Positions 1-37,322 of a stretch of DNA of 64,000 nucleotides are shown here, piece by piece. The position numbers were made by a program, and so were the translations under genes. The DNA is taken from positions 220,986 to 284,985 of the forward strand of contig JAZDNM010000003.1 in the NCBI GenBank assembly GCA_043799715.1, read 5' to 3'. Under the pieces are notes generated by a model that saw only the letters and a list, made by a program, of their open reading frames with translations, had not been told where the DNA came from and searched no databases. Each line of letters opens with the position of its first letter. The stretch's first letter is position 1. Origin of the DNA: an archaeon. Lineage in GTDB: Archaea; Nanobdellota; Nanobdellia; Pacearchaeales; DTIR01.

Positions 1-688
1 TTGTGTTGCCAGACAGATAATTGAAAGTAAGCAGGGGCAGGTCATTCTGGTCATCATCAGTGCAGTTTTCGCTGAAGTTGTAATAAAAAACAGTATCCTC
101 TGTTATGCTTCTTGTTGGAAGCTTGCCGCCGGGATTTTTTGCAAATATTGAAGGATTAGTATTGCTTATGAATGTATTCTCAGAGGCATTCACGCTGCCG
201 TAAGTGAAATTTGTGCAGTTTATTTCAAAGGGTATATTCCCCTTGTATTTGAAACTCCTGTTGTACTGGTACTGCCCTGTTGATGCTGAGTATGTCATGT
301 TATTCCAGGAAGTAAATGCCCCTGTAAGATTTTCATTAAATCTTATGCTGCAGTTTCCATCTTCCCTGGTTGATTCTATAATTTCCCCGGAAGTCTTGTT
401 TGTAAAATTGGCGTAAAAATATATGTTGTATGATGACATCCCCTTTGACGGGCACTGGTAATCAAGATTCGGATGCTCCTCCCTGCATGTGGGATAAGTA
501 TACATTGTTGTTGAGTCAGTTGTGTCCCAAATAGTGAGATTTGCCTTTGACTTGTTTGCAGAGGTTGTGGCAAACACAGAATTTGCTGATGACATAAGCA
601 GAAGCAGGAATATTGCTGCAGCAGCAAGAGGCACGATGAATGCCTCGCTCTGTTTCCCTCTGGCAAACTTTAGAATCTGGTTTTTCAT
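1..688 (-). CDS. Secreted surface protein, N-terminal part only; gene continues beyond the window start
   Basis: The minus-strand ATG at 686-688 opens MKNQILKFARGKQSEAFIVPLAAAAIFLLLLM, a signal peptide or TM helix. A Cys-containing sequence with many N-x-S/T sequons follows and runs off the window edge. Translated by eye, and absent from the ORF track because it is truncated. Confidence 0.45.
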   Translation of the reverse strand, partial: MKNQILKFARGKQSEAFIVPLAAAAIFLLLLMSSANSVFATTSANKSKANLTIWDTTDSTTMYTYPTCREEHPNLDYQCPSKGMSSYNIYFYANFTNKTSGEIIESTREDGNCSIRFNENLTGAFTSWNNMTYSASTGQYQYNRSFKYKGNIPFEINCTNFTYGSVNASENTFISNTNPSIFAKNPGGKLPTRSITEDTVFYYNFSENCTDDDQNDLPLLTFNYLSGNT

Positions 689-927
689 TTTCCTCTTTTT
701 GAAACTGAAGATTTTTTTGCTGATTTTTTTCTTGGCCTGTCCCAGTAAGGACTCTTGCATTTCGGGCATACCTTTGGCTCGCCCTCTGAGTTCTGTCTTG
801 GCAGCCATGCATGCCTGCATCTCTCGCATAAATAACCCAATATTTCTGTCTTGCCCATTTATCCTCTTTATTATTGGTAATATACCTTAGGTATATAAAT
901 ATTGCTATATTCTTATTAGTATAATAC

Positions 928-3375
928 TCACTCCCTTAGCCTGCCTATGCCTGAATACAGCTTCATTATTCTGTTGTAATACTTTCTCTTTTCCCTCTGA
1001 GGCAGCGCGTCATACAGGCTTCTTGTCTGGGTGTAATAATGCCTTGCAAGTGTTATGTCTTTTTCTGAAATTGCCTTCTTGGTTCTTTCAATGAAGCTGT
1101 TCAGCAGTGCTCTCTTCCTTTTTATGTCCTTTTCCTCCTCTTTTGATTTCAGCAGCTGCATTTCCTTTCTTGTTATTGCAACAGCAAGCGCAGCGAGTAT
1201 CAGGGTTATTGCAAGTATAAATTGGAACAAGCCGCAGTCATGCCTGCATGAAAAAATTTCAGCGAGCTCGCATTTTTCATCCCCGCATTTCGGAGCTCTC
1301 GGGTAACCAAGGGCGCATGCCTTGCACGGCCCTCCGCAGTCAATCCAGTCCTCCCCCTGATTCTGTATTCCGTCAGAACATGTAGTGCAGGGCTTGCACG
1401 GCCCTCCGCAGTCAGGCAGGACTTCACACATGCCATCGTGGCAGTTTAATATGCTGTCATAACAATCAGGAAGAAGCGTGAATGCGCAAACCTGCATTTC
1501 CTTTGGCTGTTTGCTTGTTGACCTGCAGTTTGCCTTGTCAAAACACGAGCGTGTCTGAAAGCCGCATTCCCCTGATAACAGGGAAGAGCAGTTTGAGATG
1601 ACTGTTTCATAGATATTTCCCAAAATTGCAATTGAGTCAGGAGTTGATGCATTCTGGCATAAGCTCCAGTCAGTGCATATCCACTGTTCTGTACAGCCTC
1701 CGCCGCCGCCTCCGCCTCCTCCTGAAACTGCTGTTGATACTATAGGGGCGGAATTCACAGTCACATTCCAGACAACAGTATCATTCAGCAGCCCGTCTGT
1801 TGCAAGCGCTGTCACATTGTATGCTCCTGCAGCGCCTGATGATGTTGAGAAGGTGTATGTTGAATTTGCGAGGATGAAAATATCATTTTTGTACCATAAT
1901 ATTGAAGGTGTTGTGCCATCCTCATCTTCAGCAGTTGCATTGAAAGTTATGCTCTCGCCCTCTGTTATGGACTGAATTCTATTTTCAGGATAATAGGATG
2001 TTATGTTTGGGGCATGGTTCTCAAGGGTTATTGTGAAAGAAACATTTTCGCATGCATTTTTTGGGGCGGCAGTCTGGTTGCAGAAGGAGATGTTTGCAGG
2101 AGCAGTAAATCCCAAGTCAGTAACGCATATCCTTACAGCATAAGTCCCGTTTATTGTCGCATTTGCAGAGAAATTTATGTTTCCTGTTGCAGCATTTATT
2201 GTGAAGAATGTTGTGCCGCTTGTGAATGTTGAATTGAACCTCAATGCGCCTGGAGTGTCCCCATCTTCCTCATCGCTGGCATAAGCAGTGTAATTAAGGC
2301 TGCTGTTGATATAAACTGTCTTTGCTCCTATGTGCTGCATTACAGGGGCGTCATTCGTGCTTATTATGTTCAGCGCAAAATCCTTGAAATCAGAGGCTTC
2401 CTCGTCAGAGACATAAACTCTTATAGAGTAGACATTTGCCTGCAGTGAATTTGGGGTAAAATCTATCTGCCCTGTGTTCTCGTTTATTACAAAAAGTGCT
2501 GTGTTGTCATAAAAATGCAGGGATTCTGTCCTGTACCTTACAGGGATAAGCAAGTCCTCGTCAGTTGCAGCTGCCTGATAAAGGAAATTGGCATCCTCGC
2601 ATGTCTGCATGTCCGGAATTATTCCAAGCAAAGGAGCGTCATTCACATTCAGCACAGTAAAATTAAACCCTGATGAGTTGGCGGCATTCCTTTCATCTCT
2701 GACTGTGATATTCATGGAATGAAATCCCACATCAGAGTCATTCGCAGAGAAATTAATCAGCCCATAGATATTAAAATCAAATGAGGGGAATATCGCAGAA
2801 GTTGAATTGTGAGTGAAGTTTATGCTCTCATTGTTCGGCTCAACAACAAAAGAGCTGAGGTTTACTGTAAAAAGAATATCCTCTGTCAGATTGAAGTTTC
2901 TCGTGTAATTTATCCAGTAAGGCACCCTGTTTGGGGGAAATATCTCAAGCGAGAATGTTGTTGAGCTGTTTGAGATATTTCCACAAAGCCCATGCGTTGC
3001 CCATATCAATACAGTGTAAGTTCCTGTCTCATTTTCCAGGGGAGTAAAGTTAATCAGCCCGCTTGTCCTCGATATAAAGAAACTTGTAAGATTTGCCTTG
3101 CCTGCTGCCTGGCTTGTCCTGCCATAATAGTATATTGGATTTCCTGAATCAGTTGCAATTACCTGATGTGTGAAATTGCTTCCTGCAATTGCTGTCTTGT
3201 CTGTTATTGATCCAAGAGTTGGCGGTCTGTCAATGCAAACTCCCACTCTTCCAAGGCTTGCCTTCCCGACTGTTAAGTTGCCGGTAATTTTCATCCACAC
3301 AAAAAGGTTGCCTGCAAGCGAGAGCAGCGCGAACATAACGATAATCAGGGCTATTTTATTGTTGTCTAACCTCAT
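928..3375 (-). CDS. Large membrane-anchored surface protein with cadherin-like repeats, a Cys-rich stalk and a cytoplasmic tail
   Basis: 815 aa with an N-terminal signal or TM segment. Three repeats carry an (N/H)(D)AP cadherin-like motif: VNDAPLL, TNDAPVM and ENHAPNIT. Sequons are dense. A Gly9 linker precedes a Cys-rich region with two DCGGPCK(P/A)C repeats, then a TM helix (FQFILAITLILAALAVAIT) and a ~100 aa K/E/R-rich tail. Confidence 0.6.
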   Translation of the reverse strand: MRLDNNKIALIIVMFALLSLAGNLFVWMKITGNLTVGKASLGRVGVCIDRPPTLGSITDKTAIAGSNFTHQVIATDSGNPIYYYGRTSQAAGKANLTSFFISRTSGLINFTPLENETGTYTVLIWATHGLCGNISNSSTTFSLEIFPPNRVPYWINYTRNFNLTEDILFTVNLSSFVVEPNNESINFTHNSTSAIFPSFDFNIYGLINFSANDSDVGFHSMNITVRDERNAANSSGFNFTVLNVNDAPLLGIIPDMQTCEDANFLYQAAATDEDLLIPVRYRTESLHFYDNTALFVINENTGQIDFTPNSLQANVYSIRVYVSDEEASDFKDFALNIISTNDAPVMQHIGAKTVYINSSLNYTAYASDEEDGDTPGALRFNSTFTSGTTFFTINAATGNINFSANATINGTYAVRICVTDLGFTAPANISFCNQTAAPKNACENVSFTITLENHAPNITSYYPENRIQSITEGESITFNATAEDEDGTTPSILWYKNDIFILANSTYTFSTSSGAAGAYNVTALATDGLLNDTVVWNVTVNSAPIVSTAVSGGGGGGGGGCTEQWICTDWSLCQNASTPDSIAILGNIYETVISNCSSLLSGECGFQTRSCFDKANCRSTSKQPKEMQVCAFTLLPDCYDSILNCHDGMCEVLPDCGGPCKPCTTCSDGIQNQGEDWIDCGGPCKACALGYPRAPKCGDEKCELAEIFSCRHDCGLFQFILAITLILAALAVAITRKEMQLLKSKEEEKDIKRKRALLNSFIERTKKAISEKDITLARHYYTQTRSLYDALPQREKRKYYNRIMKLYSGIGRLRE

Positions 3376-3471
3376 CTTTAAAATCAGGATTCCCCCTTTT
3401 CCGGAGCTGGTTTATGATATTACTTCTGTCTGGATATTTAAATAGTTTTCCCGAAAAAATTATACAGGAAT

Positions 3472-3939
3472 TCAGGCGCGCCTGAACACAAGAAATATCT
3501 TTCCGCTGTACTTTCCCATTGGAGCTGATGCAGGGACATAAACATTGAAATCTATCTGCCTTGTTTCTCCGGGAGATATTATAAAATTATTGTCATAAGA
3601 AAGAAAACTGCTTATGCTGCCGATTGCTTTTATCCCCACTGACATGTTAAACCTATCAAGGTTGCCCGCTGTCACAAACCTGTTGGCGCCGCCTTCTGGA
3701 ACAATCGCCCCAAAATTAATGACATCAATGCTTTCTTCTCCAAGGGCAAATGCAACATTGCCGCCAACCTCCAGCTTGGCAGTGAAGATTTTGACATAGC
3801 GGATATTATAGAGCATATAGGATATTTCAGCAGCCACAGCAGAGAATGCAATTATAATCAGAAAAAGGGCTGCTGTCCTTATCCTGCTGTTCCTCGCTTC
3901 TTTTTTTGGCTTATTCGCTTTTCTTTCTTTTTTTGGCAT
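3472..3939 (-). CDS. Small secreted or membrane protein; N-terminus MPKKERK plus a hydrophobic helix
   Basis: 155 aa. A basic N-terminus is followed by a TM or signal segment (AALFLIIIAFSAVAA). There is no recognisable catalytic motif. Confidence 0.4.
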   Translation of the reverse strand: MPKKERKANKPKKEARNSRIRTAALFLIIIAFSAVAAEISYMLYNIRYVKIFTAKLEVGGNVAFALGEESIDVINFGAIVPEGGANRFVTAGNLDRFNMSVGIKAIGSISSFLSYDNNFIISPGETRQIDFNVYVPASAPMGKYSGKIFLVFRRA

Positions 3940-5104
3940 TTTTCATTTCTGAATTTTTTAAAAGGATGAATACTATTATAATTATCAGCCCAACAAAAAT
4001 TGCAGTTGCTGATGTGTAAAACACAAGTCTTTTTATCTCCTCTGGATTGACAAGCATTTTTACTTTTATTTCCTGTGATGTGCTATTGCCTGAGAAGTAC
4101 AGCCTGATTTCCCCGTTGTAATACTGCGCTTTTTTCTCTGCAGCATCATAATAGGCGGTAAGGGTTGCTGTTTCCCACGGCTTAAGGGCAATTGCAGGGG
4201 ATTTCATGACTTCATTCTTCCCGTCATCAATTATTATTGAAGCGTAGACATTTTCAATAGCACTGTTCCACCTGCTCTGCACATCGACATTAAACTTGTT
4301 TATCTTGTTCCTTACAAGCTCTTTTGTGTAATTAACAACCTTCACTGCAAGCAATCCCACCCTAAATCTTGATGATGTGTTTATTTCATTTCCATCATAA
4401 TAAACTGTTGCAACTGCATAATATTCCCCTGACTCAAAATCCTTTGTGTTCAGTTCAGCTGAAAGTGTTATCCTGTCGTTTGAAGGAAGAGATTTCTCTG
4501 ATGTCTTAAGCGTTGTGATTTTTCTGTTGAATCCTGAGTCAGTAGGCCCAAACAAATCAATTACAGCACTGACGTTTGAGATATCTTTCTCTGTCCAGCT
4601 TCTTACTGCAACAGTCAGCGTTATAATATCCCCTGAATCAATATTCGGGACTTGAAAGTCATCTATCTTTGCATAAATGTCCGGGCTGAGAACCCTAATG
4701 CTGACAATTGAGCAGGCTTTTGTCCTTATTGTGACTCCTCCGCCTGCGCCTGACTGCAATTCTGTCACACAGAGAAAATTATCATGCAGTCCTGGCTCTG
4801 GCTTTTGCTCAGGAAGCTGCAATACTGCAGAAAAAGTTTTTGTCATTCCCGGCTGGACATCCTTGAACAATTCATTGCTCAATTTAAAATATTGCGAGAG
4901 TGTTCCATCAACAGTTATCTCGTAATCCATTGTGCTTGGCGTGTTCGCAACAAGGAAATATGAGAAAGATTCCTTCAAGCCGGGCTTGAAATCAATAATA
5001 TAATTAAGCTGCCCGCCATAATCCCCTATCCCAACTGCTGATACAGAAGATATTTGGAAGAGTGCTGCAAGCAGCAAAAGAACAAAAAAAAATTTATTTT
5101 TCAT
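3911..5104 (-). CDS. Secreted protein with a C-terminal TM anchor (hypothetical)
   Basis: Likely start is MKNKFFFVLLLLAALFQISSVSA at 5104, a signal peptide, within the longer ORF 3911..5173. The C-terminus has the TM helix FVGLIIIIVFILL and a basic tail KKRKKSE. Confidence 0.5.
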   Translation of the reverse strand: MKNKFFFVLLLLAALFQISSVSAVGIGDYGGQLNYIIDFKPGLKESFSYFLVANTPSTMDYEITVDGTLSQYFKLSNELFKDVQPGMTKTFSAVLQLPEQKPEPGLHDNFLCVTELQSGAGGGVTIRTKACSIVSIRVLSPDIYAKIDDFQVPNIDSGDIITLTVAVRSWTEKDISNVSAVIDLFGPTDSGFNRKITTLKTSEKSLPSNDRITLSAELNTKDFESGEYYAVATVYYDGNEINTSSRFRVGLLAVKVVNYTKELVRNKINKFNVDVQSRWNSAIENVYASIIIDDGKNEVMKSPAIALKPWETATLTAYYDAAEKKAQYYNGEIRLYFSGNSTSQEIKVKMLVNPEEIKRLVFYTSATAIFVGLIIIIVFILLKNSEMKNAKKRKKSE

Positions 5105-5188
5105 TTTCCTCTTTTTTTGCTTCAGCATAAAGGCAAATAAATACCTTTCGGTTTCTTTATAATAATATCCCAAAAAATAGCATTGAAC

Positions 5189-5863
5189 TCAAGAGCAGGC
5201 AGCATTCCTTCTTGTTGCAGTGAATGTCCATAATGCTGTCTTGTTTCCTGATGCTGAATCTTGGGGAACTCCAAGAACAACGCTTATGTTTAATGAGCGC
5301 TTTCCTGAAACGTATGACAAGTTCTTGCATACCTCATAGCCAGGAGCAGCTGTGCTTTCTATTGCTGTCAAGTTTGCAAGAGCGCCTCCGCAAACCCCTG
5401 AAGCTGCTGCTGAACAAGAGCTTGTTTCATTATTATAAGCATCATACTGCGCATAAGACCCTGTGCCTCCAAGCATTGTTGTTCCTGTTGAATCTGATGT
5501 GAAGTTTACATTAATATCAACTGTTCCTGTGTTTGCAATGCCTATATCTTTTGCGCTCCAGTCTGACTGCGATGTCCAGTTTGCAGGAACTGCCTGGCTG
5601 CTGTTTAATTCTGCTATTGTGTATCCTGCTGCAACATAGCCAACTCCGAATTCAACATTTGCAGGAGCGACATTAAGCTGCGCGACAACAGCGACAGTAA
5701 CATTAACCCTGCCTGTTGTGCCGAAGCCAGTTATTCCCTGCAGTGCAGGAATCATGTTGGCAAGATTTGAAACCTGCAGGACAGTAAGCAAAGCTCCGCC
5801 AAGAGAAATCACAATTGCGGCAGCGAGAAAAACTGCAAGGGTTTTGTTTGAAATTTCAGCCAT
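5189..5863 (-). CDS. Secreted or membrane protein with a Gly/Thr/Ser/Asn-rich ectodomain (hypothetical)
   Basis: 224 aa. The N-terminus has a hydrophobic segment LAVFLAAAIVISLGGALLTV. The rest is low complexity with several sequons. Confidence 0.45.
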   Translation of the reverse strand: MAEISNKTLAVFLAAAIVISLGGALLTVLQVSNLANMIPALQGITGFGTTGRVNVTVAVVAQLNVAPANVEFGVGYVAAGYTIAELNSSQAVPANWTSQSDWSAKDIGIANTGTVDINVNFTSDSTGTTMLGGTGSYAQYDAYNNETSSCSAAASGVCGGALANLTAIESTAAPGYEVCKNLSYVSGKRSLNISVVLGVPQDSASGNKTALWTFTATRRNAACS

Positions 5864-5954
5864 TTTTTCTTTTTAATTCCTCTTTACTGAATCTATGATG
5901 CTTGATTAAATAAATATTCCTATTTTATTCTTTGCTTTTAATATATCTTAGAGA

Positions 5955-6173
5955 TTATCCTGCTGGGATGCCTTCAAGTGTTTCTTCTGCAGGATTTCCT
6001 ATTCCCACTTTTATTTGTGCATAACTTACAGGAGTATCAGATGAATATTGCTGCTTTACAGATGTTATCATATCCAAAACATACCATGTGCTTATTACAG
6101 ATAGCAGTATTGTCAGAACAAGCAGAACAAGTATTGTAGTTCTCGCAACCTCTTGTTTTTCTTTTTTTGGCAT
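5955..6173 (-). CDS. Small membrane protein with MPKKEK N-terminus (hypothetical, possibly pilin-like)
   Basis: 72 aa. It shares the MPKKE(K/R) basic N-terminus plus a single TM helix with the ORF at 3472..3939. Confidence 0.35.
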   Translation of the reverse strand: MPKKEKQEVARTTILVLLVLTILLSVISTWYVLDMITSVKQQYSSDTPVSYAQIKVGIGNPAEETLEGIPAG

Positions 6174-6402
6174 TTTTCCTCTTTATTCTTAATTCTCGAG
6201 TGACAGCAAGTTTATAAACATTTCTTTTGTTTTGAAAAAATTCCAAATGTTTTGCTTGCTTCCAGTTTAATTTGGGAATTTTCTTTATAAATATTCCTAT
6301 TTTTAAAGAAAGTAGCTATAAAGAGGGGAGATTAACACGGAAAAGGTTTAAATAATTCTCTTTCATTGGGAATTAAATAAAAAGAGGCAGGCAATATCAA
6401 CT

Positions 6403-8685
6403 ATGGGTTTAAACGCAGCAGGGAAAAACTTTCTTTGCATTGCAATTCTGTTTGCATTTGTTTCAATAATACTTTCTTCATCAGCATTTGCAGTGTCAAC
6501 AAGAAGTTACTGTAAATATGCAGGCGGCTCAGGAAGCTATGCTTGTGATTCAGGCGCTGTAAGCGGAAACTCTGCAGCCTGCGCTGCTGCAAATGGGGCG
6601 CAATGCGCACAAGAAGGGGATGTTTTCTGCTACGCTGAATCAACATGCGAAGCAGGCACAACATTGAAGGGGCCTATATACACCTATAATGTGAACTGGG
6701 ATGCTGACTCTGCTGACTGCTCATGCAAGGCAGGAAGCAGCAGATGGGGCATAAGATTTATTTCAGGGACAACAGGACAGTGCTGCGGAGATGATGCAAG
6801 CGAATACTTTATTGGCGCAACAAATCAGAAAAATATTGACAAGATTGACACATGCTGCAAGTCAGATGCATATGTATTCAACGGAGTTTGCTGCGGAGAT
6901 GATGCAAGCGAATATTATGCAGGCTCAACAAACGGCAAGAGCTGCGACGGAACACAGGCATGCTGCAGCTCCCCGAGCTTGTATTCCCTGAACAGCAACT
7001 GTGTTTCATCATGCCCGGCTGTGACATCAGTGTACTGGACTGACCTTTCAGGAACAAGGATAAACTCCACAGAGCTAAATGATTATGTAATGCTTGTTGC
7101 AGAAACATCAGGCGCAGAAGGGATGCTGATTAACTTCACACTATGGGAAGAGGGAATAGTAAAATGCTATGAGGAAGTATCAAGAGCTTATTCAAATCAG
7201 GGCAAGGCATCTATTCTCTGGAAAGTAAAAGCCTGTGCCGACGGCTCAAACGACGGAAATAAATTCAAGGCATTTGTAAGTTCAACTCCCCTGATTTATC
7301 TTGAATCAGGGCTTCTTGCTGTCTCGCTTGTTGAAAGCGACAAGCTGCCTGTTGCTGTGATATCACAGCCAGCAGACGGGGGAATTTTCAATCTTGGGGA
7401 TAACATAAACTTTGTCTCAGGAAGCTATGATCCAGATGACCTGATAACCAGTGTAAAGTGGGATTTTGGAGACGGATACACAAGCATGCTCGCAAACACA
7501 ACGCATGCTTACTCTGCAGGCGGTCCTAAATTTGCAATACTGACAGTCCAGAACTCAAGGGGAAAGACAGCAGAAGTCAGAATAGGCATTCTTATAAATT
7601 CATCATCTGATGATCCCCCTCTGGCGATGATATCATCTCCAAGTTACGGGGAGAAATTTTCAGGTATGCTTATAACATTCAATGCAACAATGAGCAGGGA
7701 TGACAGAACTCCTTTCAACCAGCTGATATTCAAATGGGAATTTGACGACGGCAGTTCGCCTTATTCAGGCACTGGCATTTCAGGGGCATATTTCACAAAA
7801 CTGTTCTCAACAGCAGGGGAGCATCTTGTAAAATTAAGCGTTGATGACTCAGGACCTGGCTCGTTAACAGAAACATCATTTTCCATAAATGGCTGCCAGG
7901 TTCCGCTTGACGGCACTTCTGAGTTTGTTCCGTTCGGCAGCTGTTCTTCTATAAGCAAGCATTACTTCTGCGCCAACGAAACAACATATTATGATACAAT
8001 GGAAGAGCACTGCGAGGGCGCTGACAAGCAGGCGCTGACGTCAGACGACTGCTGCCCGAGAGGATTTTATTGCCCTGCTATTGGAGCTGCCTGCTCAGAG
8101 AGATCAAGCAACTGCGCAAGTTACAATATTTCTGCTGAATGTGAACAGTATGGGTGCATATGGCTGAACTCATCATGCGCAGAGCCGGCAGGAATGTCAT
8201 CCTGCTCTGATTATAAAAGTGAGGCTGCGTGCAATACTGATGTGCTCGGATTAGGAAGGTCAGTTGGAAGAGGGCTTGGCACCGACATCTGCGGAAGGAC
8301 ATTCGGAAGCTATCTCGTGAATGCATCAAGCTGCAAGTGCGGATGGGAACCTGCAGGAAGCCCGTCTGGAAACTGCAAATTTGGCTATTCTGTTGTGAGG
8401 ATTATTCCCGGGAATGTCACATTCATAACCTGCATGAAATCATTCACATTAAGCGACTGTGTTGCAGGAACCCAAAGCATGAACTGGACTGCATTAATAC
8501 TGCCTTCGGAACTTGCTGGAAACGAGACAGCAAGACAGCAATGCAGTGAAGGATACAAGGGAATAAAATGCGGAGTTTCAATCTCAAGGCTGCCATTTTT
8601 CGGAATTTTCAATTTTGTCCTTGCTGTAGCGGCAATTGCGCTCTACTATCTCTCTGCTGCAACAAGAAGGAACATCAAAAAATAA
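6403..8685 (+). CDS. Cys-rich surface protein with PKD-like domains and a C-terminal TM anchor
   Basis: Signal peptide MGLNAAGKNFLCIAILFAFVSIILSSSAFA. The CCGDDASEY module is duplicated. Two PKD-like signatures are present, WDFGDGYTS and FKWEFDDGSS. A C-terminal TM helix precedes an RRNIKK tail. RBS-like aaagagg lies upstream. Confidence 0.7.
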   Translation: MGLNAAGKNFLCIAILFAFVSIILSSSAFAVSTRSYCKYAGGSGSYACDSGAVSGNSAACAAANGAQCAQEGDVFCYAESTCEAGTTLKGPIYTYNVNWDADSADCSCKAGSSRWGIRFISGTTGQCCGDDASEYFIGATNQKNIDKIDTCCKSDAYVFNGVCCGDDASEYYAGSTNGKSCDGTQACCSSPSLYSLNSNCVSSCPAVTSVYWTDLSGTRINSTELNDYVMLVAETSGAEGMLINFTLWEEGIVKCYEEVSRAYSNQGKASILWKVKACADGSNDGNKFKAFVSSTPLIYLESGLLAVSLVESDKLPVAVISQPADGGIFNLGDNINFVSGSYDPDDLITSVKWDFGDGYTSMLANTTHAYSAGGPKFAILTVQNSRGKTAEVRIGILINSSSDDPPLAMISSPSYGEKFSGMLITFNATMSRDDRTPFNQLIFKWEFDDGSSPYSGTGISGAYFTKLFSTAGEHLVKLSVDDSGPGSLTETSFSINGCQVPLDGTSEFVPFGSCSSISKHYFCANETTYYDTMEEHCEGADKQALTSDDCCPRGFYCPAIGAACSERSSNCASYNISAECEQYGCIWLNSSCAEPAGMSSCSDYKSEAACNTDVLGLGRSVGRGLGTDICGRTFGSYLVNASSCKCGWEPAGSPSGNCKFGYSVVRIIPGNVTFITCMKSFTLSDCVAGTQSMNWTALILPSELAGNETARQQCSEGYKGIKCGVSISRLPFFGIFNFVLAVAAIALYYLSAATRRNIKK
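6781..6914 (+). repeat. Perfect 26-nt direct repeat (tgctgcggagatgatgcaagcgaata) at 6781-6806 and 6889-6914 inside the surface-protein gene
   Basis: Seen directly in the sequence. It encodes the duplicated CCGDDASEY peptide. Confidence 0.85.
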
Positions 8686-8749
8686 CGCTTTTTCTGGAAA
8701 AAGTTTATAAATTGTTTTATGCTTGTTGATTTGGCAAAAGAGGAATTAT

Positions 8750-11443
8750 ATGTCAAGCAAATCAGCATTTTTGGTTTTGATAACTGCTCTTGCAGCAATA
8801 ATGGCTGTATCCTATGCAATTGCAGAGGTTTCAGGCAGCGGAATGATTCTGACAAGAAGCATGTATGGAATAGGGGAGGCAATTGAAGGGAAAGTTAACA
8901 TTACGCTTTCAAGCGAGCCTGCTGACAGCGCTGTAACAGCTTTGGGAAAAAATACTTCTTTGCTGGATTTCCTGAAAAATAATAATCTTGAAAAAGACAA
9001 GGATTATTTATGCACTCCTGAAGACTGCAATGACTATTATGAGACTGTTGGAATCAGCACAAAGCAAAAATCCCTGCAGGCAGGCGACACACTAATTGGA
9101 AGCATAGCAGTAGGGAAGGACATTGAAATAAAGCAGAATGCATTGGAATTCAGCATAACAGGCAATGGAGGAGAACCAGTATGCGGCGTTGTCCCCCTGA
9201 AGCTGGACTTGCTTGCAGATAACTCAATTGACTGGGTTGATATGGAGCCCTCTGATTTGTGCGGAAGCCTGCAGCCAAGCAGCTGCTATGACGATACTTC
9301 AGCAAATCTTGAGCTTGACATTACAACAACCCCCTACTGCCAAAAAATTTACTTGCCTATTTCAGCGAGATTTAAAATTTCAGCGCTTGTAAAAAAGAAT
9401 ACTGGCGGAGGGGATTTGTCTGCTTTCATATATGACAAAAAAATAGGAGAAAGCACAGAATGCGACCTTCCTGAGCCGAATGTGACTTCTTACACTGAAA
9501 CAAACTGCATGGTGGACTTGAAGGTTTACGGCAACAATCAGGATTATTATGTATGCATCCAGGATAATTCTATTGACGGCGCATACACAATAAAGGCAGA
9601 GAAATCCTCCCCTATATGCGGATACAGCGACCTTCCTGGAAGATCAAGGAACGAAAGCGCTGATTTCGCGCTTCTTGTGCAGGGAACTGCAACAATTCCA
9701 TTAAACAGGACAGTAACATTCAATGAGCAGGAATTCAGCAAGTTTTCTTCTGTAGGCATAGGGGAATATCTTCAGGATTATCTCAATAAAAGGCATTCAA
9801 GCAATTGCCTTGACGGATGCATAATTCCTATAAGGATAATCTCATCAAACGCAGCAAACTTAAAAGATATGAGACTAAGCTACTGCGCCCAGGGATTATG
9901 CACAACAGAACAGAGCTTTTTCGGGCTTGAAAGAAAAAGTTCTATGATTGACATGAACATGACATCCCTTGATTTGTCTGCTGCAAATTTGTCTGCTGAG
10001 GGATATGGGCTCCAGACATTCTCCTTTTCAATAGGCGGAGTAAAGATAGGAGAAGAGGAAATTTCAATAGAAAGAGTTCCTGTAATAAAGAATCTTGTAG
10101 CGCTTAATGCAGAAGCAGGGGCTGCTGTTGATTTTTTTGCTGAGGCATATTCCCCAAAGAACAACACAATTGTAAGCTATGAATGGATATTTGGGGATGG
10201 CGGCACTGCAACAGCAGGGAGCTCTGTAACTCATGAATATAAAAATGTAGGGGAATTTAAGGTTACTGTAACAGCAGTTGATTCACAGGGATTGAAGGGA
10301 AGCAGAAGTTCAAAAATAACTGTGGGCTCACCGCAGGAGATAATTAATATGACTCTCTCTGGCAAGAGGATAATATTCAACGAGCTTAAAAATGAGATTG
10401 ACAAGGCAGGATGGTACAAGGGGCTTATTGAAAAGCAGCTTGGCACAGCAGAAATAAGCACTTTGCTCAGTGATTATGAAAACCAGTTCAGATTCGCAAC
10501 AACCCCGTCGGAATATATAGAGCTTATGCCCAAAGTCAGCAAGTTCATAATACCCCAGTCAATTTATGACTCTGAATTTGTTACAGAGATTCCAATTACT
10601 GTTGATGTTGATTCAATAAAGCCGGAGCTTATTGAAGGGCTTAATGGCGGCGTGTATGACTCCTCAAGAGCATCTGAGACAAGAAACGCAATATGGGCAT
10701 GGCAGCACAAGAATGTTGCCATGACAGCGACTTCAAGAGTGATGGAATCCATTGATGAGAATGAGAATAGGGCAGAGCTTGCAACAATTATTACACTTAG
10801 AATAAAGCCATTGACCCAGTTGGAAGAGAGCTATCTTGTTATTCTTGCGCCTTATGAAAGCGCGACATTTGCATCAGATTACAATCAGAGAGATGTTGCA
10901 GGGAATATAGGATTTGTGCTTGACAGCCTGAGCTCTGATTATATAATTTCATTTGCTGTTACAGGGCGCGTTGATATAAGCAGCCTTGAGATGTTTATGT
11001 CCCCTTATCTGGCAAATCTCGAAATTGAGGAGAATATTGTGTGCAACAGCAACAGGGTATGCGAAAAAAATCTCGGGGAAAACTGGAAGACATGCAGAGA
11101 TGACTGCAAGCCAATAGGACTCGCTTTAATCCTGCTTATTTTTGCCCTAGCTGCAATGGCTGCAGCATATATTTTCCTGCAAAAATGGTACAAAACAAAA
11201 TACGAGAAGTATCTGTTCAAGGAGCAGCATGATTTAAGCAATATGGTGTCGTTTGCAAGCAACTCACTGAGAAGAGGCGAGAGCGAGAATGATGTAAAGG
11301 GTAAGCTCAAACAGGCAGGATGGAATCTTGAGCAGATATACTATATCTTCAGGAAAATAAAAGGCGAAAAGGTTGGGATGCCTGAAGTGAAAATTAAATG
11401 GCTTGACATGGTAAAAAACCTGCTCAAGCACCGAAAGGTTTAA
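8750..11443 (+). CDS. Large surface protein with a PKD-like domain, C-terminal TM anchor and ~100 aa cytoplasmic tail
   Basis: ATG at 8750 with aagaggaa upstream; the track ORF starts at TTG 8723. Signal peptide MSSKSAFLVLITALAAIMAVSYAIA. PKD signature YEWIFGDGGTATAGSSVTHEY. A Cys motif CNSNRVCEKNLGENWKTCRDDC precedes the TM helix IGLALILLIFALAAMAAAYIFL. Confidence 0.7.
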   Translation: MSSKSAFLVLITALAAIMAVSYAIAEVSGSGMILTRSMYGIGEAIEGKVNITLSSEPADSAVTALGKNTSLLDFLKNNNLEKDKDYLCTPEDCNDYYETVGISTKQKSLQAGDTLIGSIAVGKDIEIKQNALEFSITGNGGEPVCGVVPLKLDLLADNSIDWVDMEPSDLCGSLQPSSCYDDTSANLELDITTTPYCQKIYLPISARFKISALVKKNTGGGDLSAFIYDKKIGESTECDLPEPNVTSYTETNCMVDLKVYGNNQDYYVCIQDNSIDGAYTIKAEKSSPICGYSDLPGRSRNESADFALLVQGTATIPLNRTVTFNEQEFSKFSSVGIGEYLQDYLNKRHSSNCLDGCIIPIRIISSNAANLKDMRLSYCAQGLCTTEQSFFGLERKSSMIDMNMTSLDLSAANLSAEGYGLQTFSFSIGGVKIGEEEISIERVPVIKNLVALNAEAGAAVDFFAEAYSPKNNTIVSYEWIFGDGGTATAGSSVTHEYKNVGEFKVTVTAVDSQGLKGSRSSKITVGSPQEIINMTLSGKRIIFNELKNEIDKAGWYKGLIEKQLGTAEISTLLSDYENQFRFATTPSEYIELMPKVSKFIIPQSIYDSEFVTEIPITVDVDSIKPELIEGLNGGVYDSSRASETRNAIWAWQHKNVAMTATSRVMESIDENENRAELATIITLRIKPLTQLEESYLVILAPYESATFASDYNQRDVAGNIGFVLDSLSSDYIISFAVTGRVDISSLEMFMSPYLANLEIEENIVCNSNRVCEKNLGENWKTCRDDCKPIGLALILLIFALAAMAAAYIFLQKWYKTKYEKYLFKEQHDLSNMVSFASNSLRRGESENDVKGKLKQAGWNLEQIYYIFRKIKGEKVGMPEVKIKWLDMVKNLLKHRKV

Positions 11444-18030: not shown

Positions 18031-18125
18031 TGCTCCCGACGGGACTCGAACCCGTGTCGCAGGCGTTCTCTTTACTTTTTATGTAGACGAGAGGCCCGCA
18101 TACTTGGCCGCTATACTACGGGAGC
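18031..18125 (-). tRNA. tRNA-Glu (anticodon CUC) with a 22-nt intron at the canonical 37/38 position
   Basis: The reverse complement folds as acceptor GCTCCCG/CGGGAGC, T arm ACGGG-TTCGAGT-CCCGT, anticodon stem CGGGC/GCCTG and loop CTCTCG|C. The intron lies at + strand 18066..18087, and its GAGA can pair with the anticodon-region TCTC in a BHB-like arrangement. Folded by hand. Confidence 0.65.
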
Positions 18126-18128
18126 ATA

Positions 18129-18227
18129 TAGCCCCGCACGGATTCGAACCGTGGTCGCAAGGTTTCTTAAGCATTTTATGAATCTGCTTCCAGAGCCTCG
18201 CATACTGGACCGCTATACTACGGGGCT
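18129..18227 (-). tRNA. tRNA-Gln (anticodon CUG) with a 26-nt intron at 37/38
   Basis: The reverse complement folds as acceptor AGCCCCG/CGGGGCT with A1:U72 and A73, T arm CACGG-TTCGAAT-CCGTG, and anticodon stem CGAGG/CCTTG. Compensatory changes relative to tRNA-Glu support the stem. The intron lies at + strand 18164..18189. Folded by hand. Confidence 0.6.
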
Positions 18228-33666: not shown

Positions 33667-34614
33667 ATGAAGCATAACCTCAAGATAACAGCATTGCTGC
33701 TTGCAATGTTTCTTTTTACGCAGCTTCTCGGGCTTGCTGTTATAAACGCATATTCCCCAAGAATTGAGAAGGTATTTGTCAATGGAACTGTCCAGAATGT
33801 AACTGTCCAGACAGAAATTCCTTATGGAATGCAGCCGCCTGAAATGCAGCCATGGGAGGCATTGCAGTCAATAGGGGTAAGCATAATTCTGGCGGTGATT
33901 ATCATGTTCTTCCTTATGAAGAAAAGAGCTGATTTATTACTGAGAGTCTGGCTTTTCTCTGTTGTTGTTATTTCCATAGCCATAGCATTTAATGCTGGCT
34001 TCATGAAGCTGAGTTTCCTTTCAGGAACGCAGATGCTCGCTTTTGTCCTTGCTTTTCCTCTTGCATTTTACAAGATATTCCAGAGAAACATAATAATCCA
34101 CAATGCAACTGAGCTCCTAATTTATCCGGGAATTGCTGTTATCTTTGTGCCGATACTCAATGTGTGGGCAGCAGCAGCGCTTCTTGCCCTTATAGCGGTA
34201 TATGATGTTTATGCTGTATGGCATTCAGGGTTCATGCAGAAGCTTGCAAAATTCCAGATGAATCAGCTCAAGGTTTTCACTGGATTTTTTGTGCCTTATG
34301 TTGCGAAAAAAGACAGGATAATAATAGAAAGAATGAAGTCCCTGCCCCAGAAAGAAAAGATGCAAAAGTTCAAAAAACTCAAGATAAAAGTAAATCTTGC
34401 GATTCTTGGGGGAGGGGACATAACCTTTCCTTTAATATTCGCAGGGGTTATATTGAGAACAAGCGGGTTATTGCATGCAATAATTGTGCCCCTTGCCGCA
34501 ACCCTCGCTCTGCTTCTTTTGTTTGCTGTTGCGAAGAAAGGCAAGTTTTATCCTGCAATGCTTTTTTTAAGCCCGGCATGCATTCTCGCTTGGCTGATTG
34601 GGATGCTGTTTTAG
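33667..34614 (+). CDS. Presenilin/signal-peptide-peptidase-like intramembrane aspartyl protease homologue
   Basis: Polytopic membrane protein. YD motif (IAVYDVYAVW), GxGD motif (LAILGGGDITFP) and a PAL-like YPAML near the C-terminus. Confidence 0.6.
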   Translation: MKHNLKITALLLAMFLFTQLLGLAVINAYSPRIEKVFVNGTVQNVTVQTEIPYGMQPPEMQPWEALQSIGVSIILAVIIMFFLMKKRADLLLRVWLFSVVVISIAIAFNAGFMKLSFLSGTQMLAFVLAFPLAFYKIFQRNIIIHNATELLIYPGIAVIFVPILNVWAAAALLALIAVYDVYAVWHSGFMQKLAKFQMNQLKVFTGFFVPYVAKKDRIIIERMKSLPQKEKMQKFKKLKIKVNLAILGGGDITFPLIFAGVILRTSGLLHAIIVPLAATLALLLLFAVAKKGKFYPAMLFLSPACILAWLIGMLF

Positions 34615-34618
34615 ATTT

Positions 34619-35089
34619 TTAATATAAAATTCCTATAAGAATTGAGCTGATTTGCTCAAATCGGATTTTTCCGTCTGGTGAGGCTGAATTGTCGCCTTTT
34701 GTTATGGCGTACCATCCCCTGCTGTCCTCTCCTGTTTCAATCACTCTATGAACAACAAGAACGCTGCCCTGCTCAAATGTGATTATGTCTCCTTTATGGA
34801 CTTGTTCTGGATGGCTTGGAGCAATCTCTATGCCTGTTGAATTTTCGTTTATCACAGGCACCATGCTGCTTGTGTTTGCGAATCTCCCTATTATTGCGTT
34901 TTCTATGCTGAGGATAATCTGGCTGCTGCTTATTCTGATGCTGCTCTCATTTATCCTGTCATAAGGCGCAGAAGTGATGTTATCAATGCCTGTTCCAAGT
35001 GTGGCAAAAGGATTTCTGAATGGCAGGAAATAAAAAACTGAGATTATCGCTGCCGCGACTGCAAGAATAAATAACACCCTTGGCTGCAT
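34619..35089 (-). CDS. Signal peptidase I (archaeal Sec11-type)
   Basis: Start MQPRVLFILAVAAAIISVF is an internal ATG of ORF 34619..35347. Motifs SSMVPV (catalytic Ser region), GDIITF and KGDNSASPD. Confidence 0.6.
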   Translation of the reverse strand: MQPRVLFILAVAAAIISVFYFLPFRNPFATLGTGIDNITSAPYDRINESSIRISSSQIILSIENAIIGRFANTSSMVPVINENSTGIEIAPSHPEQVHKGDIITFEQGSVLVVHRVIETGEDSRGWYAITKGDNSASPDGKIRFEQISSILIGILY

Positions 35090-35246
35090 TTTCCTCTTTT
35101 GATGCAATTCCAGAGTGGCTTCAACTTTAAAAATATTTATATTCACAGGAAAGAATGTTTCACTTGTTATTCCCTTAGGCAACTTATTTAAACTTTTAAT
35201 TATAGATAATCCAATGCCACAAAAGCTGTCTGCAGGAAGAAATGCC

Positions 35247-37322
35247 ATGGCATATGAACTGCTGGTTCTGGTTGGGGGAGTGCTGGTTCTGCTTCTTTTT
35301 TTAATGTATTTCAAAACAGAGACAACAGGGCATGTTGTTGTTTCCAAGATTTCAGGGCAGTACTATGCCTTGCAGGTTATAAGCGGAATAATTGATTTGG
35401 ATATTGAGGAGGGGGAATTCCTGCCTGCGCAGTCTGTTCTGAAGGCAGGGGTAGCGGGTAATGAGAACAGTTTTACATTGGAGCAATTGATGATATCATC
35501 AGGGGCAGGCATTGAGAAGAAACAGGGAAATTTTTCTGTTAATGATGTTGATATAACAGGGCAGGGTGAGGGCTATGGGATTGCAGGCGGGGCGACAATT
35601 TCATTAAATTTGTCTGACTTCAATCTGCAAGTTGAAGAGGCAGGCAAGTATAATCTGATTATATCTCTTGAATACAACGAAATAGTGCTCTTAACTGAAC
35701 AAAAGAAGATAAATGTCAAGTCATGTTCTCCTGATTGGAAACAGCACAACACAAGCTGCATGGAAAATGATGCCATAACAGGTTATTACAGGGACAGAAA
35801 AGAATGCTATGAGAAAACAGGAAAAGATTCCTATCTTCTTGAAAAGCCTGAGAATATCACTTTTTCATGCGATTACTGCACGCCGAACTGGAAGCCAAAA
35901 AATGAGTCGTGCACTGAAAATGAGACAAGAACTGTTTATTATGCTGACTCAAGAAAATGCTATGAGAAAACAGGGCTGATGTCTGACTTGGCTGGAATGC
36001 CTGAAAATGAAACAGCAGATTGTGATTTTTGCAGGCAGAATATAACCCAATATGCCACTTCCTGCGATGTTAACGACAGCTTCACTGTTTATTACAGGGA
36101 TGCAAAAAGATGCTATGAGAAAACAGGGCTGGAAGAGGATAAAGTGCCAGAAAATGAGACAATGGCTTGCGATTACTGCACGCCGAACTGGGTTGCTGTG
36201 AATACATCATGCTTGTCTGGAGATAAAATTGTTGAATGGTACAATGATTCTGAAGGATGCTTTGGCAAAACTCACTTAAGCTCTGAACTGCTTGGAAGGG
36301 CTGATAACAGAACATATTATTTTGCATGCTCTTATTACAATAATAATCTTATAGGGGATATTTCTGACATCAGCACAAGCATAGAAAATTTGAGCATGAC
36401 TCTTTCAAGCTCTGCTGACCTGACTCAGCCGCTCAGGGACTTGCTTCCTGTTTCAATAAAGGAAAACGGCTCTGAACTGCTTGAGTTCAATTTTAATTTT
36501 TCTGCAGGAGAGCTTAATCTTGCGGATTTGACAATACAAAAGCAGGATGAGAATGCAACTCTGGGATTTATTGCTGTCAACGGCATTGATATTGCCGCGC
36601 AGAATGAAACAAAAACAGTATGGGTTGACAGGATTGGCAGCGGGGCAGGCATATGCATAAAAGATGAGGAGAATGCGAATGCTATGGATATTACTGCGGC
36701 ATGCAGCGCAACAAATGAGATTTTTGTAAAATGCCCTGGCTCTTTTGCAGGATATGCCTGCGAGTTTGATGCTGTGATGAAAAAATACAAAGTTTCTGAC
36801 TTGAGGCATTCAGCTGTTATTGAGCAGGAAGCGTTCTGCGGGGATTCTGCCTGCAATGGCGCTGAATCATGCAGTTCCTGTTCAACTGACTGCGGCGAAT
36901 GCCCTGCAGCTGCTGCTGAAACATCTGCGCAGTCCTCTGGCGGGGGGGGCAGCGGAGGAAGCTGCACGCCAAAATGGGAGTGCTCTGAATGGAATGTTTG
37001 TTCAAATGGAAAGCAGACAAGAACATGCACAAATCTGAAATCTTACTGCCCTGTGAGCAAGCCTGCAGAGCAGCAGGATTGTGAAATGCCGTCTGTTCCT
37101 GAAACAGAAAATAAAGAGATAAAAGAAACTGCCAGTAATGAAACAGTATCAAAACAATATGAAAAGATTCAGCCAAAACTCGGAATGCTTGGTGGAGTAA
37201 TAGGAGTTGTCACTGCAATGCCTTTTGAATTTAGGATAGGAATAGCCGCGACACTTCTTTCATTTGTGCTTGTGCTGATAACGCTAATAGCTTTCCTTGC
37301 AATTATCAGAAAAAAGAAATAA
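35247..37322 (+). CDS. Surface protein with four tandem Cys modules, a Gly-rich linker, Cys/Trp module and C-terminal TM anchor
   Basis: Start MAYELLVLVGGVLVLLLFLMYF. Four repeats of the form Y(Y/R)xDxK(E/K/R)CYEKTG ... PENxT ... CD(Y/F)C. The C-terminus reads SSGGGGSGGSCTPKWECSEWNVCSNGKQTRTC, then the TM helix AATLLSFVLVLITLIAFLAII and RKKK. Confidence 0.65.
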   Translation: MAYELLVLVGGVLVLLLFLMYFKTETTGHVVVSKISGQYYALQVISGIIDLDIEEGEFLPAQSVLKAGVAGNENSFTLEQLMISSGAGIEKKQGNFSVNDVDITGQGEGYGIAGGATISLNLSDFNLQVEEAGKYNLIISLEYNEIVLLTEQKKINVKSCSPDWKQHNTSCMENDAITGYYRDRKECYEKTGKDSYLLEKPENITFSCDYCTPNWKPKNESCTENETRTVYYADSRKCYEKTGLMSDLAGMPENETADCDFCRQNITQYATSCDVNDSFTVYYRDAKRCYEKTGLEEDKVPENETMACDYCTPNWVAVNTSCLSGDKIVEWYNDSEGCFGKTHLSSELLGRADNRTYYFACSYYNNNLIGDISDISTSIENLSMTLSSSADLTQPLRDLLPVSIKENGSELLEFNFNFSAGELNLADLTIQKQDENATLGFIAVNGIDIAAQNETKTVWVDRIGSGAGICIKDEENANAMDITAACSATNEIFVKCPGSFAGYACEFDAVMKKYKVSDLRHSAVIEQEAFCGDSACNGAESCSSCSTDCGECPAAAAETSAQSSGGGGSGGSCTPKWECSEWNVCSNGKQTRTCTNLKSYCPVSKPAEQQDCEMPSVPETENKEIKETASNETVSKQYEKIQPKLGMLGGVIGVVTAMPFEFRIGIAATLLSFVLVLITLIAFLAIIRKKK
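35740..36260 (+). repeat. Intragenic tandem repeats (atgctatgagaaaacagg x3; tgcgattactgcacgccgaactgg x2)
   Basis: Direct DNA repeats seen at ~35806, 35959 and 36110 and at 35871 and 36170. They encode the CYEKTG and CDYCTPNW modules. Confidence 0.8.

Follow-up and report, generated by a model that had tools for sequence, protein, structure and literature searches.

The 64,000-nucleotide stretch of DNA analyzed here, hereafter the window, comes from contig JAZDNM010000003.1 of a Pacearchaeales archaeon (assembly GCA_043799715.1; G+C content 40.6%) and encodes two surface proteins that share a short cysteine- and tryptophan-rich module near their C termini. Protein 1, the product of open reading frame (ORF) 928..3375 on the reverse strand, has 815 amino acids (aa) and is identical to the NCBI hypothetical protein V1886_01730, encoded on a 353-kb contig; its ectodomain gave Ig-like families in a Pfam scan (Big_9, He_PIG, and Ig_SIBA-E). 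Protein 2 (forward-strand ORF 35115/35214..37322) has 702 aa as annotated (V1886_01935) and up to 735 aa, and a Pfam scan of it returned no family. Both proteins begin with a hydrophobic segment, either a signal peptide or an anchor, and both carry one copy of the module, with six Cys and two Trp, in a membrane-proximal position after a Gly linker; their anchoring is by an ordinary C-terminal transmembrane (TM) helix. A first-pass annotation of the window had read the shared element as the anchor of "giant" surface proteins, among them a PKD protein of 906 aa (forward-strand ORF 8711-11440), but none of the three lengths justifies the word. Our reading, to which we give a probability of roughly 0.7, is that the element is one copy of a disulfide-stapled extracellular domain of ~45 residues, three-stranded and resembling the thrombospondin type-1 repeat (TSR), from a large spacer or adhesive repeat family of DPANN archaea and Candidate Phyla Radiation (CPR) bacteria.

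Definition of the Module

The regular expression C...W.C..W..C matched exactly twice in the six-frame translation of the window, at 1657-1695 on the reverse strand within the ORF of protein 1 and at 36963-37001 on the forward strand within ORF 35115..37322. Shuffling the residues of the ORFs gave an expectation of 0.0 matches and none of 300 shuffles reached two, which rules out a chance or low-complexity origin of the motif. BLASTP aligned the C termini of the two proteins over GGxCTxxWxCxxWxxCxN with an E value of 8e-4, and a hidden Markov model (HMM) built from homologues matched only proteins 1 (E value 6e-18, long form) and 2 (E value 1e-12, short form) within the window. The motif is present in 32 homologues of protein 1, mostly downstream of a Gly-rich run, and in an alignment of 25 modules the six Cys and two Trp are invariant and a Q, an R, and a P are conserved to at least 90%. 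The shared spacing CTxxWxCxxWxxCxN…(Q)TR(S/T)C noticed in the first-pass annotation is thus genuine, and the pattern C-x3-W-x-C-x2-W-x2-C…Q-x-R-x-C is likewise limited to two places in the window (1486-1695, reverse strand, and 36963-37082, forward strand), against about 0 expected. The consensus of the module, ~45 residues long, is C-T-[EP]-N-W-x-C-x2-W-S-x-C-x4-Q-T-R-x-C-x-D-x3-C-G-T-x3-K-P-x3-Q-x-C, and both copies in the window belong to the family, each combining the register C-x3-W-x-C-x2-W-x2-C…Q-x-R-x-C…C…C with a significant profile match.

The module occurs in two forms: a short one of ~45 aa, as in protein 2, and a long one, as in protein 1, with an insertion of 25-35 aa that brings two extra Cys and is found in 17 of the 36 modules from homologues of protein 1. 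Close relatives of protein 2 differ in module content. One of them (P0124) has a second Cys motif, called CGD below, together with a Gly linker and a TM helix and is without the module, and another (P0125) has two modules in tandem. Judged from such sequence comparisons, the module is a discrete, mobile domain that has been gained and lost between close homologues. Our confidence in the definition of the domain and its family is very high.

Abundance and Host Range of the Module Family

We searched the profile of the 25 modules against 1.84e9 representative proteins, each standing for a cluster, and found 8,204 matches at E ≤ 1e-3, of which 1,947 reached E ≤ 1e-10 and 217 reached E ≤ 1e-30; the top-scoring ones have 3-15 matched stretches per protein. 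The 777 module domains delimited in 186 matching proteins have a median length of 45 aa and a median gap between copies of 0, so the module is a true tandem repeat. As had been proposed from the two window proteins, it is attached to different ectodomains: Ig-like/Big_9, CARDB, and Big_7 domains, papain-like and subtilisin proteases, and a GH16/laminin-G-like protein. The partner domains identified were Big_7, CARDB, Peptidase_C1, subtilisin, CBM_4_9, FG-GAP, PG_binding_1, and Kre9_KNH, and the database names of the module proteins are either "hypothetical" or refer solely to such partners.

For the host range, the GTDB species genomes were scanned with a degenerate DNA pattern derived from the motif by back-translation, which gave at least 120 loci in comparison with ~0.07 expected by chance in 596 Gb according to our own calculation. 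The taxa of the 120 loci listed were counted by hand from the record titles. Named DPANN groups (Woese-, Pace-, Aenigmat-, Nano-, Micr-, and Iain-/Diapherotrites and Nanohaloarchaea) account for at least 74 loci and CPR/Patescibacteria (Kerfeld-, Staskawicz-, and Saccharibacteria and Peribacter) for at least 9, with at least 15 more from an unclassified "archaeon" and at least 2 from an unclassified "bacterium". The remainder are titled "uncultured Methanosarcinales" (at least 14 loci) and "uncultured Gammaproteobacteria" (at least 6), both known to us by title only and from third-party metagenome-assembled genomes. Among the matches listed, the labels of these 20 module contigs may be placeholders or mis-assignments, and they are suspect because the other hosts are DPANN or CPR organisms. 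Komeilibacteria, Gracilibacteria, Kerfeldbacteria, and Micrarchaeota are among the taxon names carried by module proteins, and the homologues of protein 1 that have a taxon name are mostly labeled Woesearchaeota, Nanoarchaeota, or Pacearchaeota, which places the source of the window among the DPANN-type archaea. One record in a viral collection, IMGVR_UViG_3300033148_003007, encodes at 2723-4075 on the forward strand a protein of 450 aa in which a signal peptide and five tandem modules are followed by an SGGSGGSGGG linker; its viral status is putative, the alternative being a mis-binned DPANN or CPR fragment.

Searches of Pfam, NCBIfam, and PDB sequences with the module gave no significant match. 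In Pfam, no member of the TSP_1 clan matched the window modules at E ≤ 10, and the PDB sequence searches with a single module and with both profiles returned only insignificant entries, namely a fibrillin EGF (E value 1.7), the TSR of CSP (1.1), and a 24-aa toxin (0.12). By itself, the 48-aa module was too short a query for a word-indexed homologue search and retrieved nothing; the search succeeded with the full-length proteins. Our literature searches turned up no description of the module, nor any of TSRs from DPANN archaea or CPR bacteria. The impression that the module was unrecognized therefore stands at the level of sequence databases, but not fully at that of structure, where its predicted fold resembles members of the TSR superfamily. 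The best description of the module is that of a TSR-like repeat family that has no name yet and is very abundant in the surface proteins of CPR and DPANN organisms.

Predicted Fold and Possible Relation to Thrombospondin Repeats

For the short module (44 residues, 25-sequence alignment), AlphaFold2 gave a confident, TSR-like model with a predicted local distance difference test score (pLDDT) of 90.5 and strands at residues 7-9, 19-21, 24-26, and 39-41, but the segment that follows the module in protein 1, consisting of two DCGG modules and a CGD module, reached just 52. The predicted module fold agrees with the elongated, three-stranded antiparallel domain of ~50 residues typical of TSRs. Comparing the model with known structures, Foldseek placed chain C of 7nyc (the soluble membrane attack complex, solved by cryo-electron microscopy) and two entries of complement C8 as its top three matches in the PDB, all with E values above 1; in BFVD, the best match (probability 0.91, 35% identity over 46 columns) was to a phage protein that bears the name "Thrombospondin type-1 (TSP1) repeat". 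When 132 modules were scanned against Pfam one at a time, TSP1_ADAMTS was the family matched most often, with 12 members, all below threshold (best E value 0.0024), whereas no TSP1 family was listed when the Cys were kept in place and all other residues were shuffled. We further assembled a TSR reference profile from ten sequences and validated it against the PDB, where it retrieved TSP-1, properdin, CSP, and ADAMTS13 with E values down to 4e-68. Aligned with the module profile by hhalign, it scored 52% (P value 1.5e-4) over the 14-column core WSxC…GxQxR, which is the structural heart of TSRs.

Several observations weigh against a relationship with TSRs. In the shuffled Pfam control, an unrelated family reached 6 members at an E value of 0.005 by chance. 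An HMM of TSRs matched 685 modules no better than their shuffled versions (best E values 0.028 and 0.016, respectively), and for this reason we make no claim of homology at the sequence level. The structural support consists of one AlphaFold2 model of 44 residues based on 25 sequences, and the model covers the short form, whereas protein 1 carries the long one. Finally, the linear layout of Cys and Trp departs from that of canonical TSRs: in place of the WxxW(xxW) motif the module has W-x-C-x-x-W, the two Trp standing five positions apart with a Cys between them, and neither the canonical arrangement of Cys (C1-C5, C2-C6, and C3-C4) nor its group-2 variant is found in it. No significant match to the Pfam TSP_1 clan or to the TSR profile was obtained.

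The same 685 distinct modules are informative about the bonding of the domain. The first Trp (W7) is present in 99% of them and the second (W12) in 96%, and at the place of the Arg ladder (RxRxR) that stacks with the Trp in TSRs only Q-x-R is conserved (Q in 84% and R in 92%). All six Cys are retained in 621 modules (pattern CCCCCC), the second and fourth are lost together in 60 (C-C-CC), and a single Cys is lost in only 2. Such paired loss speaks for a disulfide that links the second and fourth Cys, a bond that would fit the model if strands 7-9 and 24-26 are paired.

Set beside the eukaryotic domains (TSP_1, TSP1_ADAMTS, and TSP1_spondin, as found in thrombospondin, properdin, C6-C9, ADAMTS, F-spondin, and semaphorin-5A), the module is similar in its length of ~45-55 aa and six Cys, in the core W-S-x-C…G-x-Q-x-R-x-C and the predicted elongated three-stranded fold, and in being extracellular, often repeated in tandem, and found alongside proteases and adhesion domains. 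It differs in having its Trp arranged as W-x-C-x2-W rather than WxxWxxW, only one conserved Arg, three Cys within the N-terminal third, two extra Cys on the N-terminal side, and no Cys equivalent to that of "TCG". The putative bond between the second and fourth Cys is without a TSR counterpart, and its hosts belong to the DPANN archaea and the CPR bacteria, not to the eukaryotes. Midkine and pleiotrophin (PTN_MK_C), which represent a TSR-like branch lacking WxxW, have another Cys pattern and a strongly basic surface, and, unlike the module, they are not known to form long tandem arrays or to occur outside vertebrates and invertebrates.

Weighing these observations, we consider it likely that the module has a TSR-like fold, as the model suggests, and doubt that it shares a true, ancient ancestry with the eukaryotic TSR, for which the odds appear clearly unfavorable. 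One could also think that the module is a small disulfide-rich beta domain that arose by convergence, evolutionarily unconnected with TSRs and serving as a lineage-specific spacer of CPR and DPANN organisms, and that AlphaFold2 was misled by the W…C…Q-x-R pattern. The lack of a significant sequence match to TSR models, the divergent Cys layout and Trp spacing, and the shortness of the hhalign alignment are all as expected from convergence, and TSRs have been treated as an animal-lineage domain in the literature that we searched (PMC3417536). On the other hand, convergence does not readily account for TSR-bearing proteins being ranked first in separate Foldseek searches of the PDB and BFVD, for TSP1_ADAMTS being the most frequent subthreshold family of the real modules and absent from the shuffled list, or for the aligned core coinciding with the structural center of the TSR. 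We regard it as improbable.

Proposed Role at the Cell Surface

We propose that the first strand of the domain would bear both Trp and the second the Q-x-R motif, with the disulfide between the second and fourth Cys stapling the two strands to each other and the four invariant Cys capping the ends of the domain. Such modules would be strung into arrays or inserted singly among the Ig-like, PKD/CARDB, protease, and glycosidase domains of secreted and membrane proteins. In the window proteins, the Gly hinge would position the module within a membrane-proximal stalk anchored by the C-terminal TM helix, and the module would act as a rigid, protease-resistant rod that stiffens and extends the stalk of a cell-surface coat. 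By analogy with the TSRs of ADAMTS, properdin, TRAP, CSP, and MIC2, the module itself may also bind ligands on other cells. We hold this adhesive role to be tentative, its chances lying a little below even.

The resemblance to the apicomplexan TRAP family (TRAP, MIC2, and CSP) is a functional speculation and not one of homology. The vWA/I domain of that family is absent from the window proteins, whose ectodomains are Ig-like/Big_9, and the TRAP-family tail is acidic, contains Trp, and binds a motor, in contrast to the basic, helical tail of protein 1 with its weak TPR-like matches; gliding machinery is not in evidence for the window proteins.

A different function would be that of a carbohydrate-binding module, tethering enzymes and adhesins to polysaccharides of a host or of the cell's own envelope rather than spacing them. 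The module has two conserved and possibly exposed aromatic residues and co-occurs with glycoside-hydrolase-like, CBM_4_9, PG_binding_1, and protease domains, and both eukaryotic TSRs and midkine/pleiotrophin bind sulfated glycans. Yet the Trp of TSRs are structural, buried in a Trp-Arg stack, so the conservation of Trp need not signal ligand binding, and long arrays, here with up to 15 copies, are more typical of repeats that provide spacing or avidity. We give glycan binding as the primary function a low probability, lower than that of convergence.

A large share of microbial diversity belongs to the CPR bacteria and DPANN archaea, whose members are believed to grow attached to other cells and whose surface proteins are mostly annotated as "hypothetical". 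With over 8,000 protein clusters containing it, frequently as long arrays, the unnamed domain leaves the domain databases with a sizeable gap, and defining the family would improve the annotation of CPR and DPANN proteomes at once. Were homology with TSRs true, the accepted view of the TSR as a eukaryotic invention for adhesion would change, and the module proteins would become candidates for host attachment. TSRs would then have a large prokaryotic reservoir in episymbiotic CPR and DPANN organisms, serving attachment between cells, and the eukaryotic TSR would have descended from this pool or been exchanged with it.

The Proposed Anchor Cassette

According to the first-pass annotation, the module is the pre-TM part of a dedicated stalk-and-anchor cassette, a single unit of module, TM helix, and tail that displays various ectodomains and couples them to the cytoplasm. 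A fixed order is found in the protein-1 family: at 31-64% identity, homologues of 650-860 aa with a varying number of Ig-like domains keep the succession of poly-Gly, module, two DCGG modules, usually a CGD module, TM helix, and tail, and the module is the final folded domain ahead of the membrane in proteins 1 and 2 alike. However, this order does not extend to the family of the module, whose architectures we surveyed in the 150 best-scoring of the 8,204 profile-matched proteins. A hydrophobic segment follows the last module in only 35 of the 150 (within 120 aa in 25), and 120 have just an N-terminal hydrophobic segment, so the module is not tied to a C-terminal anchor; it usually stands in internal tandem arrays. 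The DCGG module was found in 1 of these proteins, the CGD module in 4, and the tail motif of protein 1 in none, which makes the full cassette a feature of the protein-1 family and not a general unit. Protein 2 has neither DCGG modules nor a tail, and its relative P0124 has kept the CGD module, linker, and TM helix in the absence of the Trp module. The cassette of the protein-1 type, a helical tail included, is specific to the protein-1 family, and as a dedicated anchoring device it is the least probable of the explanations considered, with little chance of being correct.

The details of the two C termini (Table 1) also differ from the initial description. In protein 1, the QTRSC motif does not lead straight into the TM helix but is separated from it by ~85 aa of other Cys modules, two DCGG and one CGD, and the tail, put at ~100 aa, is 80 aa long. 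In protein 2, the module does not directly precede the TM helix, as a Cys-free spacer lies between them, and what had been called a basic tail is merely RKKK. With its …MPFEFR, TM helix, and RKKK, the end of protein 2 looks tripartite, and we considered a sorting signal of the PGF/PEF-CTERM or sortase type; this was rejected, as the C termini of proteins 1 and 2 matched no NCBIfam family at E ≤ 1. Long cytoplasmic tails, taken as a hint of intracellular coupling, are present in protein 1 and the PKD protein, but the two are mutually unrelated and protein 2 has none.

Table 1. Features of proteins 1 and 2 and the PKD protein by position in the window
Feature	Protein	Position	Strand	Basis or remark
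Cytoplasmic tail, 80 aa	1	931..1170	-	Alignment of 21-22 homologue tails
C-terminal TM helix	1	1171..1230	-	Hydrophobic 20-mer LFQFILAITLILAALAVAIT, then R/K-rich sequence
CGD Cys module (CGDEKCELAEIFSCRHDCG)	1	1231..1287	-	Regular expression; abuts TM helix; pLDDT 68-80 here
DCGG Cys module 2 (CSDGIQNQGEDWIDCGGPCKAC)	1	1315..1380	-	pLDDT <50
DCGG Cys module 1 (CYDSILNCHDGMCEVLPDCGGPCKPC)	1	1387..1464	-	pLDDT <50
Six-Cys/two-Trp module (predicted TSR-like), long form, aa 561-630: CTEQWICTDWSLC…GFQTRSC…C…C	1	1486..1695	-	Regular expression, HMM, alignment with 24 homologous modules
29-aa insertion with extra Cys pair, between third Cys and Q-x-R strand	1	1564..1650	-	Alignments; defines long form
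Ser-Gly9 linker, immediately upstream of module	1	1696..1725	-	
CGD-type motif (CNSNRVCEKNLGENWKTCRDDC), just ahead of TM helix	PKD	11042..11107	+	
TM helix	PKD	11114-11179	+	
Cytoplasmic tail, 87 aa	PKD	11180-11440	+	
Four CYEKTG repeats of ~51 aa	2	35724..36335	+	Probable divergent four-Cys relatives of module
CGD Cys module (CGDSACNGAESCSSCSTDCGEC)	2	36837..36902	+	BLASTP with CGD of protein 1: 11/20 identical, E value 0.021
Gly/Ser linker SSGGGGSGGS, upstream of module	2	36933..36962	+	
Six-Cys/two-Trp module (predicted TSR-like), short canonical form (CTPKWECSEWNVCSNGKQTRTCTNLKSYCPVSKPAEQQDC)	2	36963..37082	+	
Spacer, 51 aa, Cys-free, module to TM helix	2	37083-37235	+	
C-terminal TM helix	2	37236..37307	+	Only RKKK after TM helix

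Repeats, Companion Modules, and Tails

The ectodomains of the two window proteins had been described as unrelated. This is correct in that protein 1 is Ig-like and protein 2 matches no Pfam family, but the two are probably not wholly unrelated, because a profile of the CYEKTG repeats in protein 2 could be aligned in register with that of the module (hhalign probability 54%, P value 1.3e-4, 35 columns). The repeats begin with CTPNW, contain …TR.v.Y.D…C, and have four Cys at the positions of the first, third, fifth, and sixth Cys of the module; the second Trp is lost. The best single repeat gave a weak match to the module HMM, likewise in register (9.2 bits, independent E value 0.037), and the same four-Cys state, with the second and fourth Cys missing, is that of the 60 modules mentioned above. 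Judged by these alignments, the CYEKTG repeats probably represent module copies that have degenerated.

The DCGG element, with the pattern C-x-D-G-[IV]-x-N-…-E-…-D-C-G-G-x-C-x2-C, is a further unnamed module, conserved in 28 of 125 homologue matches and kept in the protein-1 family. The CGD-type motif is common to proteins 1 and 2 and the PKD protein, and the expression C[GN][DS]..C...E...C..DC, written after the motifs had been seen, matched three times in the window in comparison with 0.003 expected. Profile searches of Pfam and the PDB with the segment of DCGG and CGD modules gave noise only. The PKD protein had been credited with a related pre-TM module; its ORF is not matched by the module HMM with either profile and lacks the paired Trp, and the sequence ahead of its TM helix fits the CGD-type pattern instead. 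The orthologue of the PKD protein (g910) has a more canonical CGD motif, CNNNGRCEKGENWRNCRQDC.

The tail of protein 1 contains a conserved, helical motif of ~50 aa, …KD..LA+.YY……Y..LP..EK+.Y..I..LY..I. Three of 21 such tails gave weak TPR_2 matches in Pfam (best E value 0.0027), and the matches in the PDB were weak as well and to helical repeats. A motif in the tail of the PKD protein is conserved in its orthologue (1-2709 on the reverse strand of its locus), reading KQAGWNLEQIYYIFRKI and KKAGWSGEQVDYAIRKI, and is unrelated to the tail of protein 1. Another PKD protein, of 760 aa (6403-8685, forward strand), has a duplicated CCGDDASEY[FY]xG[AS]TN motif near aa 127-180 and an extra Cys-rich region ahead of its C-terminal TM helix, both Cys features being unrecognized by Pfam.

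Genomic Neighborhood

Protein 1 and both PKD proteins lie in a conserved gene cluster (window positions 1-11443), found in the same order at loci whose homologues have 43% and 33% identity. One strand encodes PKD proteins of ~910 and ~794 aa, and the other proteins of ~214, ~402, ~162, and ~822 aa (protein 1), a small ORF, a Big_9 protein of ~1,422 aa, a MoxR AAA+ protein, a DUF58 protein, and a BatA/VWA protein. In the window, the N terminus of the ~1,422-aa Big_9 paralogue (MKNQILKFARGKQ…SKANLTIWDTTDS) begins near 688 on the reverse strand and runs off the left edge, and the genes for MoxR, DUF58, and BatA would lie beyond base 1. Because the cluster is conserved in distant homologues, its surface proteins are probably parts of one apparatus, of which the DCGG and CGD modules and the MoxR/DUF58/BatA-VWA cluster would be further unexplored pieces.

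Next to protein 1, an ORF of 57 aa (685-858, reverse strand) resembles a zinc ribbon (Zn_ribbon_8, E value 1.2e-4, below the Pfam cut-off). Just upstream of protein 2, a presenilin-type signal-peptide peptidase is encoded at 33667-34614 on the forward strand (Pfam SPP, E value 2e-10), and the ORF at 34619-35089 on the reverse strand, which by eye resembles a signal peptidase, is not supported as such by Pfam, where it has no match. Elsewhere in the window, two adjacent tRNA genes of 95-99 nucleotides score above the Rfam threshold at 18031-18125 and 18129-18227, both on the reverse strand; ARAGORN reports only one of the two and gives it an odd four-base anticodon, and they are probably intron-bearing archaeal tRNAs.

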